Assembly (NCBI GenBank): GCA_049969615.1
Contig: JBMFOM010000045.1
Location: 1 to 14,793 of the forward strand
DNA: 14,793 nt
Origin: a candidate division WOR-3 bacterium
Lineage (GTDB): Bacteria > Hydrothermota > Hydrothermia > JBDRYB01
Reading direction: 5' to 3'
Numbering within the stretch: position 1 is the stretch's first letter; each line of letters begins with the position of its first letter. Positions 1 to 3,000 of the stretch are shown one piece after another. Position numbers: made by a program.

Positions 1-3000
1 TATGAATTTAACTCAGATAATAAGAGGATGTATTCAGGCAAAGACGGAACCATTATTTTGGATGAATGAGAGATTGAATAAGAAAAAACGGAAGCGAAAT
101 AAATAAAGAGTATCTTGCTTTGTGTATAAATTCCCTTATTGGAAAAATGCAGACAGAAAGGGATGGTGGAGGTTCTGTTATCCTTCATTGGAAACCAGAG
201 CAAGTAAAAAGATTAAAGATCCCTATTCTTCCGCTCTCAACTCAGCAAAAAATCGCCTCTCTTGTCCAACAATCTCACGAAGCAAGAAAAAAGGCTAAGG
301 AATTATTAGAGTTAGCAAAAAAGCAGTAGAGACTGCTATTGAGAAAAATGAAAAAGAAGCGTTGGCTTATATTTCAAAGACGCCTTATGGGGAATTTAAT
401 GAATGACAGAAAATAAGAAAAATTGAGCCTGTCTCACAATACGATTTTTTGACGCCTATCAACTCTGAGAATGAGGCCAGGAGCGGATCTTCTCTGATAC
501 AGCTTCTCAATAACCCTATTCTGGGACAGGCTTGATATAAGCTACATGTTCCTGAGCGACAGCCTGGCGCGATTGACTTTGAAATTTCCTGGCTCTGGGG
601 TTTAAGCTTTGCTCATGCTGAACATGCTTATCCTCTTGTCTGTGATACCGTATCCCAGCAATCCGAACTGGGAATCAGTCTCAGGCTATGTTTCCACGGG
701 TGGCGGGCTTGCTGACCTGAACGGGGACGGCATAACCGATTTCGCGGTGGCCGAGGGCAACGACATGCAGGCCGCGCCAAATCATGTTTATTATGGCAAC
801 GGCACGAGCTTCTCGGTCAATCCCTCCTGGTCATCAACGGACTCAAGGTATTCGGGCCACCTCGCCATAGGGGATGTCAACGGTGACGGCCACCCTGACC
901 TGGCTGTCTCGGATTACATAAGATCCGGCTGGGGAAAGACGGTCTCTGTCCTCTACATGAACACGGGCACGGGCCTCGGAACCACGGCTTCCTGGACATC
1001 TGACTCCTGCCACTCCTTCTCGTGCGGGTTCGGGGATGTCAACGGCGACGGCAGACCGGAGCTCGCCCTCGCCTGCGGGGAGGCATACAACGGGTTCTAT
1101 GAGAAAGCGATCATATACCGAAACACGGGCACTGGCTACTCCTCTCCACCCTGGTGGCAATCCACGGTGGCCTACACGGCCTATGATGTGACATTCGGGG
1201 ATGTGAACAGGGACGGCTGGCTTGACATGGTTCTAGCTGGGAATTATATGCCGGTCTGCCTCTTCCTGAACAAGCGCGGATACTATGCTACGAGCCCGGA
1301 CTGGGAATCCCCTGAGGATTACGAGGTCATCCAGTGCGCGCTCGGGGACATCAACGGCGATGGCTGGCTTGACCTGGCCATAGCTGAGAACGGGCAACTC
1401 GCGGGGCGTAGCAGGGTCTGGGTGTTCATGAATCAGTCCGGGAGCTTTGAGAGCACGCCTTCCTGGAACTCCCAGGATTCCAGGAGCTACTATTCAACCG
1501 TTGCTTTCGGTGACCCCGATGCTGATGGCGACCTTGACCTTGCGGCAGGCGGGTGGTGGGAGCCGGCCGTCATATTTGAGAACGCGGGCGGCACCCTGCA
1601 GAGGCCTCCAGCGTGGAGCTGGTATAGGAACGGCCTGGTCTGCGAGAAGATAAGCTTTGGCGGGGTTGACGCTGGCGGCCTGGTGACCCTCACGGACACA
1701 TTCACCCTCTCCGGCAGGGGAAATGTCGTTCAACTGCCGAGGATGCCCTTCCACGAGATTGTCTACCTAAAGATAAACGGCGCGGATGTCCCGGTATCAG
1801 CGCTATATGCCGCGCCAGAGGAGGGGTTTGTCTGTTTTGACACAAGCTACACGACCTCCGGTTCCAACACCATAATCGTGACCTACACCTACTCGGTCTC
1901 CCAGGACCTGACGATAACCAACTGGGAGGATGGCATGGGCAACTACCTCTTTCTGAACAATAACGCCGCGACAGCCGATCTCCCAGCGCCAAAACCGGGC
2001 ATAAGGATATTCCCCAACCCGTTCGTGTCCGAGGCTATGGTCTCATGGACAGGGGGCGAGGCCGAGCTCTATGACGCGTCCGGAAGGCTCCTGGGCACGG
2101 TAAAGGACGGACGGTTTGGCGCCGAGCTCCTGCCAGGGGTCTATTTCATCGGCTCAGGCCCGCAGAGGGTTAAGGCGGTGAAGGGGAGGTGAGGTGGTTG
2201 GATTACAATTGGCCCGGGACTGACCCTTGACTCTAAACTATGGCTATGAACTATGGCCGGAACCGGAAGCTGGTGCTTCGCGACCCCCTCTACGGACTCA
2301 ATTGGCCGGAATTTGAACCTGACTCAGTAAACAGGGGCGCACGATGACTTATGCCGAGATACGCAAAGCCGCGAAAAAACTGAGTTGGCAACTCAGCGAT
2401 AATGATATAGTTTGATCCTGCGCAGGAAGTGGGTTATAATTTCAGTCTGCCCCGCTAGCTCAATTTGGCAGAGCAGCGGATTCTTAATCCGCGGGTTCCA
2501 GGTTCAAGTCCTGGGCGGGGTATATTTGATATGCGCGAGATACTCTCTGAGCTCCGCTAATATCAGACATGAGACCTCTGACAAAGCATTGATAACTACT
2601 GGTCTGAGCCAGGGGCACTTTGTCCAACGAGAACAAGGCCATAAGAAGGGTCCCCTGAAAAATCCTGCCGAGAGAGCATTTCCTTATGGTTCTTTTCCAG
2701 CTATGATGAGGCTTTCGGATATGGACGAATGACAAACTCGGATTTTTTGGGGGGGTTGGCCTATGTATCACTGGAGAGGCAGAAGAGGCGTTGATGTTCT
2801 GTGGCAGGACCTACTCCAGCTCCATTTCTCTCCTGGCCTCGTCAATCTCCATTACGCCAAGGGTTACAAGGGTCTCAACCTTTCTCAGCGTGAATTCCCA
2901 ATCCCTCGGGACCGGATCCTCAAACCGCAGGACGAGCGAATCTCCATACAGGTATGTTATCTCCGAATTCAATATATCCTCAAGGAATCTTAGGCGTGGC

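Follow-up and report, generated by a model that had tools for sequence, protein, structure and literature searches.

A putative sigma-70-type promoter cassette at many gene and tRNA starts of a candidate division WOR-3 bacterium is the 3' end of a lineage-restricted mosaic repeat

Results

The stretch of DNA analysed here (the window) is the 14,793-nt contig JBMFOM010000045.1 of a candidate division WOR-3 bacterium (assembly GCA_049969615.1). Its forward strand carries tRNA-Lys(CTT) at 2448-2523 according to ARAGORN and at 2449-2522 according to Rfam. The 5' end of this tRNA lies 7 nt past the -10 hexamer of a promoter-like cassette, and thus a leader of only 0-1 nt is predicted. An earlier note had placed the cassette ahead of the tRNA gene with a promoter-scan score of 10 out of 12, and both points were confirmed. 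The cassette, TTGATCCTGCGCAGGAAGTGGGTTATAAT, is an exact copy at 2412-2440 on the forward strand and is followed by a conserved TT at 2441-2442. It is composed of a -35 hexamer TTGATC (2412-2417, matching 4 of 6 positions in the scan), a 17-nt spacer CTGCGCAGGAAGTGGGT (2418-2434) and a -10 hexamer TATAAT (2435-2440, 6 of 6). A perfect 10-nt palindrome, CCTGCGCAGG, was found at 2417-2426 between the two hexamers. The 29-mer occurs once in the window, where none was expected from 200 shuffles.

Three other parts of the window are related to the cassette or to the longer repeat described below. Another cassette, diverged in sequence and preceded by a portion of the linker, lies at 5586..5634 on the forward strand (repeat profile positions 142-198, E 2.8e-4); it has ATGATC at 5603-5608, an 18-nt spacer and TATAAT at 5627-5632, and ends 6 nt ahead of the GTG (5639) of an ABC-transporter ATPase gene. 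Divergent from it, at 5547..5576 on the reverse strand, a cassette-like promoter (TTGATC, CTTCGCGAGGAAGTGGCT, TATAAT, again with an 18-nt spacer) would serve a leadered gene, whose ATG at 5520 stands behind GGAGGTG. A left-end fragment of the repeat family (CCCAGATTTTGGGGCAGGCTGTAAGCC..., profile positions 4-56, E 9.9e-11) is located at 3930..3982 on the reverse strand, immediately upstream of a portal-protein gene (2811-3926, minus strand).

The whole genome (2,062,147 bases in 203 contigs, termed G000) was searched for the cassette. The numbers of 29-mer copies with 0, 1, 2, 3, 4 and 5 mismatches were 7, 19, 30, 23, 30 and 28, which gave 79 copies at up to three mismatches (40 forward and 39 reverse) and 137 at up to five. 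A 30-mer version (TGATCC...AATTT) gave 81 matches at up to three mismatches, so the 111 copies reported previously at this threshold could not be reproduced, while a profile search recovered 174 copies that include the cassette. As reported before, the reversed pattern yielded nothing, with 0 matches at up to five mismatches in the whole genome. The 17-nt spacer had been described as invariant; it is not, because 3.4 of the 17 positions on average differ from the consensus in the profile-defined copies. The spacer half outside the palindrome (AAGTGGGT) is conserved as well as the palindrome itself, and no excess of compensatory changes was seen across the latter (C-G 3 observed versus about 4 expected).

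Most copies lie just ahead of a start, as had been claimed: 111 of the 174 end 4-14 nt before an ORF or a tRNA. An ORF of at least 80 aa begins 4-12 nt later in 97 copies, and at exactly 6 nt in 51 of these, whereas only 7.8% of random positions have an ORF at 4-12 nt. A tRNA begins 7-14 nt later in 14 copies (0.1% at random positions), which corresponds to 14 of the 43 tRNA genes of the genome. The remaining copies have an ORF at 13-150 nt (41), nothing downstream (21) or a contig end (1). Life without RNase P was also considered for this organism and was ruled out by a partial RNase P RNA at a contig end. The distance from the -10 to the start peaks at 6 nt, the same as in 307 promoters that do not carry the cassette. 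We defined a candidate leaderless promoter as TAwAAT with an ORF of 100 aa or longer starting 3-12 nt downstream. Among 411 such candidates, 85 (about 21%) carry the cassette at an identity of at least 17/23. Scored over -35 and spacer together, identity with the cassette has a bimodal distribution, with 307 candidates below 12/23, 85 at 17 or more and 19 in between. The genes behind the cassettes include those for BioY, GlnA, FolE, Ddl, DapF, glycosyltransferases and ABC transporters as well as tRNAs, and 17 sampled downstream genes were functionally unrelated.

The geometry of a sigma-70-type promoter, namely hexamers near TTGACA and TATAAT with a spacing within 16-18 nt, is satisfied by the cassette, as the earlier note had proposed. 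Where a gene lies within 60 nt, 127 of 141 copies have the exact TATAAT, versus 7 of 32 copies where none does (Fisher p 3e-14). The two features together support assignment as a sigma-70-type promoter whose -10 persists only ahead of genes, and activity of the cassette as a promoter is predicted from them. The spacer is equally diverged in the two groups (3.40 versus 3.56 mismatches out of 17, p 0.92), and the likeness of the spacers therefore reflects common descent rather than selection. The TGATC core is kept in 23 of the 32 copies without a nearby gene.

The cassette had been regarded as a self-contained 30-nt unit that was homogenised. Our results do not bear this out, since at least 81 of the 174 copies remain alike beyond the upstream edge of the cassette, as parts of a longer repeat. 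The cassette is the 3' end of a mosaic, non-coding repeat of about 198 nt. The nhmmer profile of this repeat, built from six full copies, gave 230 matches in the genome, 25 of them full-length. Its coverage was about 70 at the left end, rising to about 100 midway and about 180 over the cassette. The register is fixed, as 81 of the 93 profile matches that cover the linker run on to the cassette end, and in many copies the likeness upstream of the cassette reaches up to 170 nt. There are also 93 short copies: 31 of them ('solo') have unique upstream sequence right up to the cassette, and the partial class is over-counted, since some 'partial' matches align across non-homologous IS ends. The window copy is one of the solo copies; it covers profile positions 167-198 at 2411-2442, and its likeness to other copies begins just 2 nt ahead of TTGATC. 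An age difference between full and solo copies was looked for and rejected, as the divergence from the consensus was alike in the full, partial and solo classes (4.1-5.3 mismatches out of 29).

The repeat is bounded by perfect inverted 10-mers, TTATAACCCA and TGGGTTATAA, so that its ends read TTATAACCCAG... on the left and ...TGGGTTATAA on the right. The termini can also be written TTATAACCCAGATTTTGCGG... and ...CCTGCGCAGGAAGTGGGTTATAA, and the bounds CCCAGATTTTGCGG... and ...GGAAGTGGG. If TTATAA is the target sequence, the inverted ends shrink to CCCA/TGGG, and inverted-repeat likeness beyond the TTATAA-containing 10-mer was not significant in a shuffle test (p 0.15). The 25 full-length units are sharp-ended, and the 68 left ends of the family sit in unrelated flanks. 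These flanks are TTATAA-like, with 41 of the 68 left junctions ending in T[AG][AG]; the statement that terminal repeats were lacking has thus to be revised for the 25 full-length copies, which have both the inverted 10-nt termini and such left flanks. A relic -10 is frequent in the left flanks, and some of them contain a relic promoter or an earlier cassette. At -29, which corresponds to the 18-nt spacing of native promoters relative to the relic hexamer, TTG occurs six times, compared with about 1.3 times per position elsewhere. Relic cassettes are clear in four left flanks (contigs C53, C1, C6 and C108) and weaker in a fifth (C37), and a recognisable relic -35 or cassette is found in only about 11-14 of 41 left flanks. 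Left and right flanks matched each other no better than permuted pairs did (94 of 150 positions, p 0.13), and the flank pairs agree in three atypical copies (C76, C52 and C108). Two further possibilities were rejected: shorter variants with a TTATAA left flank of their own were not seen (14 of 148 truncated copies versus a background of 3.5%), and the left end is hardly a divergent promoter, as just 4 of the 68 left ends face an ORF start.

Subterminal hairpins and a gradient resembling 5' truncation are present in the repeat, and spread of the IS200/IS605 type or of a retro type was considered; the whole element as DNA folds no better than shuffles (z -1.23). That no mobilising enzyme had been found for this repeat still stands for the 203-contig assembly. 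An autonomous element sharing its ends was looked for there without success; repeats collapse at contig ends, and the absence of such a partner is therefore not demonstrated by the assembly. Self-BLAST of the assembly for long repeats returned only protein (tandem) repeats, the neighbourhoods of two DDE_Tnp_1 genes contained no matching ends, and a Y1_Tnp search gave just two degraded, truncated fragments at contig starts.

The restriction of the cassette to this species, another claim of the earlier note, was upheld: it gave 0 matches at up to three mismatches in 40 relatives, which include the two congeners G001 (86% complete) and G002 (95% complete). By BLAST, the element DNA had 30 matches in G000, none in G001, a single one of 28 nt in G002 and none in the 38 others. 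A second repeat family shows a similar distribution: G000 has 91 copies, and none was found in 20 relatives. In the congeners, the -10 is unmoved and the spacers are unrelated at all four orthologous loci examined (ddl, ack, tRNA-Lys and a HerA-like gene), in agreement with what had been noted before. The promoter of tRNA-Lys(CTT) reads TTGATC-N18-TATAATTTCAACC in G001 and CTGATC-N18-TATAATTTGAACC in G002, and G000 differs from them only in the spacer and in 1 nt of length; with TGATC at the -35 in both congeners, a change of the spacer alone would be sufficient here. A collinear empty site could not be aligned at any of the four loci, because the upstream genes differ between species: in the congeners the ddl, ack and HerA-like loci have other upstream genes or no alignable intergenic DNA. 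A 28-nt degenerate pattern found no cassette in JGI metagenomes and a 26-nt pattern none in IMG/VR, and a looser 23-nt pattern gave three matches, all of them unrelated single promoters. Word searches of the open-access literature returned no report of this cassette, nor of a MITE targeting -10 boxes.

The same genome contains about 47 copies of an IS that is unrelated to the cassette repeat and inserts exactly 16 nt upstream of -35 hexamers. Among 95 IS termini, 38 have a full promoter match with TTG at an offset of 14-17 (35 at 16 and 3 at 15), compared with 0.14% in a random control. Both ends of the IS face promoters, and 22 target sites could be rebuilt with duplications of 8-10 bp. For Mutator-like TnGBS, ISLre2 and ISKra4 elements, insertion 15-17 bp upstream of the sigma-A -35, with a peak at 16 bp from the inverted repeat, has been described, and those with near-identical inverted repeats are stated there to insert in both orientations (PMC3942029). 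The insertion distance of the present IS falls in this range of 15-17 bp. However, the transposase matches no ISLre2 or ISKra4 model, none being listed even at E <=10 in a library that should include both. Sub-threshold matches only were obtained, to Pfam Transposase_mut (E 0.003) and IS66 (E 0.004) and to NCBIfam IS6, ISL3, IS256, IS1 and ISH6. For this transposase a search of 5.8 billion proteins found only five homologues, and its Atlas neighbours are mostly from Chloroflexota, which is a lead only. For the organism itself, a HisRS scan of genome contigs gave only relatives with 38-46% identity, spread over many phyla.

Discussion

Taken together, the cassette is probably a sigma-70-type core promoter at the outward-facing 3' end of a MITE-like repeat, mosaic and non-autonomous, that is about 198 nt long, is analogous to Correia elements and multiplied after the split from the congeners. 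The repeat would land at the -10 box (TTATAA/T) of mostly leaderless genes, so that the position of the resident -10 would be kept or regenerated 6-7 nt ahead of the start codon or the tRNA 5' end. The resident -35 and spacer would be pushed upstream and those carried by the repeat would take over. Copies before genes may then have been retained as promoters, with the upstream part of the repeat free to undergo truncation or invasion by other repeats. Transposition as the means of spread and the -10 box as its target are suggested by the sharp ends and the TTATAA-like left flanks. For the solo copies, including the one before tRNA-Lys in the window, in-place replacement of the spacer is a live alternative.

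Such replacement could even have been the general process. Concerted evolution without transposition, in which short-patch gene conversion or template switching anchored on the -35 (TTGA/TGATC) and the -10 (GGTTATAAT) copied one spacer into many promoters, would make the longer repeat merely one of several contexts, and we regard it as rather unlikely. It would fit the unique sequence right up to the cassette in the solo copies, the window copy with its likeness starting 2 nt ahead of TTGATC among them, and the tRNA-Lys promoter, which is set apart from those of the congeners by nothing more than spacer and length. The equal divergence of the full, partial and solo copies, the truncated copies without a TTATAA-like left edge and the failure to demonstrate a target duplication point in the same direction. 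However, anchors of 5-9 nt are short for recombination, and conversion leaves unexplained the fixed register of the linker-bearing matches and the 25 sharp-ended full-length units. The 32 copies without a gene within 60 nt downstream and the burst of other repeat families in the same genome also speak against it. Native promoters, moreover, mostly have TTG 1 nt further out, at the 18-nt spacing, and conversion would therefore also have had to shift the spacing.

Convergent selection, with CCTGCGCAGG as the operator of a species-specific global regulator towards which each promoter was selected, seems very improbable. A perfect 10-nt palindrome between the -35 and the -10, where repressors bind, and the presence of the cassette at some 21% of the candidate leaderless promoters would be expected of such a site. 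However, the spacer is conserved to the same degree outside the palindrome, the likeness extends far upstream in many copies and the identity distribution is bimodal rather than graded. The regulator-site reading was further disfavoured by the absence of covariation across the palindrome, by the same conservation of the spacer in the 32 copies without a nearby gene and by the unrelated functions of the downstream genes. It is just as hard to believe that the cassette is no promoter at all but either a REP-like structural repeat or the end of a mobile element (a binding site or a hairpin), brought near starts by a preference for AT-rich, -10-like targets while transcription starts elsewhere: a terminator scan did flag CCTGCGCAGGAAGTGGG followed by TTATAATTT as a weak hairpin with a T-run, and the TGATC core persists in most gene-less copies, but the 97 copies that leave 4-12 nt to an ORF give no room for another promoter, the native one being displaced, the TATAAT is kept with genes and mostly lost without them, and the 6-nt peak equals that of the non-cassette promoters.

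Small bacterial repeats that bear promoters are known (Correia, ERIC, REPIN and PMPs) and are usually viewed as occasional modifiers of expression. Outward and hybrid promoters of IS elements, in which the mobile end contributes the -35 to a -10 located at the junction, are occasional activators of silent genes. The unit found here differs from these in being non-coding, at most about 198 nt long and fixed at roughly one in five candidate leaderless promoters, those of housekeeping genes among them. The probably mobile and promoter-bearing repeat that we prefer comes closest to CREE of Neisseria, which is described as a non-coding repeat 100-160 bp long that has inverted ends, exceeds 100 copies in a genome and lies mostly 5' of genes (PMC2649163). 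According to the same description, CREE gives rise to promoters at one end or at both, the -10 lying on or beside the AT-rich target junction, is confined to one lineage and has no transposase of its own; its ends read TATAG[CT]GGATTAAC... (the 26-bp Correia repeat) and duplication of its target TA is documented (PMC2649163). Correia elements have also been named as mobile elements that bear promoters (PMC3575422). The present repeat is likewise small and non-coding, with inverted 10-mers at its ends, more than 100 copies, a position 5' of genes, a predicted promoter at an AT-rich junction, restriction to one lineage and no transposase found. However, its sequence is unrelated and its host is not Neisseria, so that the likeness is an analogy and not membership in the CREE family proper. 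It also differs in that its target duplication is not significant, in that a full -35, 17-nt spacer and -10 are carried at one end only, in the position of the cassette 6-7 nt from start codons (predicted leaderless mRNAs) and before about a third of the tRNA genes, and in the mosaic nature of the family, mostly truncated to the promoter end.

The cassette may also be compared with the PMPs of Matus-Garcia, Nijveen and van Passel, which are presented as highly similar upstream sequences before unrelated genes of one genome, with a mechanism of spread given as unknown (PMC3575422). Such likeness of upstream sequence before unrelated genes of one genome is what the cassette shows as well. In the screen described there, -150 to -50 from the start codon was searched for at least 50 nt at 80% identity, and most families were pairs (PMC3575422), whereas about 174 members were found here. 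At -37 to -7 of leaderless genes, the cassette is therefore outside the range of that screen.

A further-reaching possibility, which we put forward only tentatively, is that the mobile core promoter homes to the -10 boxes of active leaderless promoters, perhaps via DNA that is bound by RNA polymerase or melted, and that about a fifth of the candidates were overwritten after the split from the congeners. The unrelated IS of the same genome homes comparably to a site 16 nt upstream of -35 boxes. Replacement on this scale would be feasible since, in leaderless genes, the start codon follows a -10 box at a constant interval. If true, it would represent a genome-wide take-over of promoters by a selfish element that was then maintained as the host's own promoter, and the overwritten set would include a third of the tRNA genes and the housekeeping genes glnA, ddl, folE and dapF. 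One repeat-borne promoter before 85 of 411 candidate leaderless promoters and 14 of 43 tRNA genes would illustrate clearly that, in a bacterium, a mobile sequence can replace core promoters on a large scale. It would provide a natural experiment on how far the upstream halves of promoters are interchangeable and a candidate ready-made strong promoter for an uncultured lineage. Alongside the promoter-targeting IS of the same genome, the repeat may also serve as a test bed for target choice at promoters.

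Distribution and placement of the cassette

The cassette in the window (2412-2440) reads TTGATC-CTGCGCAGGAAGTGGGT-TATAAT and scored 10 of 12 in a promoter consensus scan. Its -10 box ends 7 nt before the start of tRNA-Lys(CTT) at 2448, which agrees with the promoter placement proposed in the earlier note. In the assembly that has the window as contig C45 (2.06 Mb, 203 contigs, 53.8% G+C), the 29-mer matched 79 sites when 3 mismatches were allowed, 7 of them exactly, and 137 when 5 were allowed; a 30-mer offset by one base matched 81, and a profile search recovered 174 copies, while the reversed 29-mer had no match in this genome. 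The 111 copies reported previously could not be reproduced as a figure, though they were right in order of magnitude, and the spacer, described there as invariant, differed from the consensus at a mean of 3.4 of 17 positions. The reported absence from relatives was confirmed: at up to 3 mismatches the 29-mer was found in none of the 40 searched, both congeners (G001 and G002) included. An exact-pattern search of JGI metagenomes and IMG/VR gave no match either.

Candidate leaderless promoters (n=411), defined as TA[ATC]AAT with an ORF of 100 aa or more beginning 3-12 nt downstream, were bimodal in their identity to the cassette over the 23 nt upstream of the -10 box, with fewer than 12 positions identical in 307, at least 17 in 85 and intermediate values in 19. 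The -10-to-start distance peaked at 6 nt in cassette and non-cassette classes alike, indicating leaderless mRNAs, and the TTG of native promoters mostly lay one base further out (18-nt spacing) than that of the cassette. The genome as a whole is strongly leaderless, 164 of 392 classified sites having 6 nt from -10 box to start codon. Among the 174 cassette copies, 97 had an ORF at 4-12 nt downstream (including 51 at 6 nt), 14 a tRNA at 7-14 nt and 41 an ORF at 13-150 nt; 21 had nothing downstream and one met a contig end. Random positions gave 7.8% for an ORF at 4-12 nt and 0.1% for a tRNA at 7-14 nt. A -10 box lay 7-14 nt upstream of 29 of the 43 tRNA genes, so that their leaders would be only 0-7 nt, and 12 of the 29 were cassette-like (at least 17 of 23 positions). 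The genome does have an RNase P RNA, of which a contig end leaves a partial match (C21:22206-22357).

Where a gene or tRNA lay within 60 nt, 127 of 141 copies had exactly TATAAT as the -10 box; where none did, 7 of 32 had it (p 3e-14). Spacer divergence was the same in both groups (3.40 and 3.56 mismatches per 17, respectively; p 0.92). Use-dependent constraint therefore acts on the -10 box, and shared ancestry of the copies accounts for the likeness of their spacers. No compensatory changes were seen across the spacer palindrome (T-A 86, T-G 34, C-A 12, C-G 3), and the 17 downstream genes sampled were functionally unrelated (among them BioY, an ACT-domain protein, glutamine synthetase, GTP cyclohydrolase I, Ddl, DapF, an acetate-kinase-family protein, glycosyltransferases, ABC transporters, a HerA-like protein and a GNAT acetyltransferase), both of which argue against a regulon.

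The cassette as the right end of a repeat

Conservation persisted upstream of TTGATC, and many copies shared a far longer upstream sequence. Six long copies served to build a profile, which after one iteration gave a 198-nt consensus and 230 matches in the genome (25 full-length); coverage rose from about 70 at the left end through about 100 mid-repeat to about 180 at the cassette. From left to right, the repeat consists of a left part ([TTATAA]CCCAGATTTTGCGGCAGGCTGTAAGCC...), an internal inverted copy (GCCGCAAAATCTGGG), a linker (GTCCCTAAGAAACATAAAGACTTAGAACCATTGCCTCAGATCTGTCCGGTCTCCCCAGATACACAAATGT) and the cassette, finishing GGG[TTATAA]T. Since 81 of the 93 matches covering the linker extended to the cassette end, linker and cassette form one unit. 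Homology of the 174 cassette matches began at profile position 1-10 in 26, 11-90 in 30, 91-125 in 25, 126-150 in 38 and 151-172 in 55. The short cassette copies (93) adjoined other repeats in 61 cases, unique DNA in 31 and a contig end in one. Divergence from the consensus was equal in full, partial and solo copies, the partial class being over-counted because some alignments stretch across the ends of an insertion sequence (IS). By BLAST, repeat DNA had 30 matches in this genome and a single one, of 28 nt, in G002; G001 and 38 other relatives had none.

The 101-nt left module, bounded by 15-nt inverted repeats (CCCAGATTTTGCGGC), was flipped between the same flanks in 2 of 18 copies (C1:20931-21129 and C86:147-248), which suggests either that recombination between those inverted repeats turned it round or that it is a sub-element able to move by itself. 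Some 220 nt past the left end of one full-length copy lies the start of a CRISPR array of at least 34 repeats (C1:21352-23585; Rfam CRISPR-DR2), whose 30-nt repeat is the source of the commonest genomic 13-mer (223 occurrences). A k-mer census likewise showed a CRISPR repeat, together with IS ends.

Proposed insertion at -10 boxes

The repeat terminates in inverted 10-mers (TTATAACCCA and TGGGTTATAA), with no significant inverted likeness inward of them (p 0.15). Left junctions ended in T[AG][AG] in 41 of 68 cases. In the left flanks, TTG peaked at -29, where it occurred 6 times compared with about 1.3 times at each other position; this offset places it at the 18-nt spacing of native promoters, counted from a relic TATAA. 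Relic cassettes were clear in four left flanks (C53, C1, C6, C108) and less so in a fifth (C37); -10 boxes hit irrespective of promoter type would give about this share. In three copies an atypical -10 box was matched by an atypical left flank (C76, TTCAT/TTCAAT; C52, TTAATAA/TTAACAA; C108, TCATG/TCATAA). A permutation test over all flank pairs gave no significant target duplication (p 0.13). At all four orthologous loci compared (ddl and ack in G002, the HerA-like gene and tRNA-Lys in both congeners), the congener -10 box lay at an unchanged distance from the gene and the spacers were unrelated, just as had been claimed. Taken together, these flanks, relics, atypical pairs and orthologous positions fit insertion at a -10 box without proving it. 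The TTATAA at both ends could be either a target duplication or the result of an element ending in TTATAA inserting beside TTATAA.

The window copy, whose likeness to the others begins 2 nt before TTGATC, is one of the solo copies, with unique DNA directly upstream. Such cassettes can be read as products of insertion followed by deletion between the old and the new TTGATC. In truncated copies, the left edge of homology was not marked by a TTATAA-like sequence. At the tRNA-Lys locus, G001 has TTGATC-N18-TATAATTTCAACC-tRNA and G002 CTGATC-N18-TATAATTTGAACC-tRNA; with TGATC already at the -35 box in the congeners, the spacer alone need have changed there, its length by 1 nt. Short-patch gene conversion is another possible source of the window and solo cassettes, though an unlikely one.

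No autonomous partner of the repeat was found in the 203-contig assembly. Two N-terminally truncated fragments of a Y1 transposase (IS200/IS605-type, HUH motif HVHMFV) share a start point (C73:33-182, minus strand; C39:149-274, plus strand), and one runs off its contig end. Five short contigs (C184, C187, C188, C190, C196) of tandem coding repeats (...GKEWGPYE...FSSDGSAWGF...) are collapsed pieces of at least one large repeat protein, not mobile elements. A second species-specific repeat (GGACAAACCGGGATTTTTCAGGGGTTTC; for example, C1:58008-58035) had 91 copies here at up to 3 mismatches, and no copy was found in 20 relatives; its end commonly falls 6-7 nt ahead of the -35 box of a cassette, and a related piece lies in the window at about 2655-2675.

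Elsewhere in the window, a back-to-back pair of cassette-like promoters (5547-5634) has 26 nt between its -35 boxes (5576, 5603), one promoter facing an ABC-transporter ATPase with a leaderless GTG at 5639 and the other a gene that has GGAGGTG as its ribosome-binding site and a leader of 26 nt. Downstream of tRNA-Lys, a lone phage portal-protein gene (Pfam Phage_portal, E 6.5e-60) has a left-end repeat fragment directly ahead of its start; together they occupy 2811-3982 and may represent what is left of a prophage at the tRNA.

A promoter-targeting insertion sequence

About 80 of 406 contig ends carried one of two 75-nt repeat ends finishing GGATCAC, at which an IS breaks the assembly (for example, C119:1-76, the end of C147 and C13:1-696). 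It has about 47 copies and 95 termini with inverted repeats (GTGATCCTT...), none inside the window, and one contig holds 620 nt of its interior, coding for a zinc-ribbon DDE transposase. From the 95 termini, 22 target sites with 8-10-bp duplications were rebuilt. The TTG of a full promoter match lay 16 nt from the IS end in 35 termini and 15 nt in 3 more (random control, 0.14%); these 38 promoters comprised 12 cassettes and 26 others. The transposase gave only sub-threshold matches, to IS6, ISL3, IS256, ISH6, Mutator and IS66 models, no curated IS family fits it, and 5 homologues were found among 5.8 billion proteins. The transposase occurs in each of the three genomes of the genus, in G001 as an open frame of 323 aa and in G002 in pieces. 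The fixed 16-nt distance of the IS upstream of the -35 box matches that of the Mutator-like transposases of TnGBS, ISLre2 and ISKra4, for which PMC3942029 describes an insertion peak 16 bp from inverted repeat to promoter, in both orientations when the inverted repeats are near-identical. A short repeat without coding capacity (...CTTGGATAGGGCCAAGAGAGCACAGCCGGGGAAAGGATCAC), found for example upstream of cassettes on C61, C124, C88 and C6, has the IS terminal inverted repeat at an equal distance from -35 boxes and is probably a miniature derivative of the IS itself; 15 of the 95 termini were of this untyped kind.

Relation to known mobile promoters

Closest to the repeat among known systems is the Neisseria Correia element, which PMC2649163 describes as 104-157 bp long with inverted ends, a TA target, 120-250 copies and promoters arising at its ends; the 'putative mobile promoters' described in PMC3575422 are also close. 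Because its ends are unrelated, the repeat falls outside the Correia family; by analogy, it would work like a Correia element. Unlike these known systems, it has a complete promoter at a single end, sits 6-7 nt ahead of start codons and tRNA 5' ends, accounts for about a fifth of candidate leaderless promoters, and most of its copies have decayed to the promoter end. With moderate confidence, and on sequence comparison, we favour the view that the cassette is the predicted promoter end of a Correia-like, non-autonomous mobile repeat that would land at the -10 boxes of leaderless genes.
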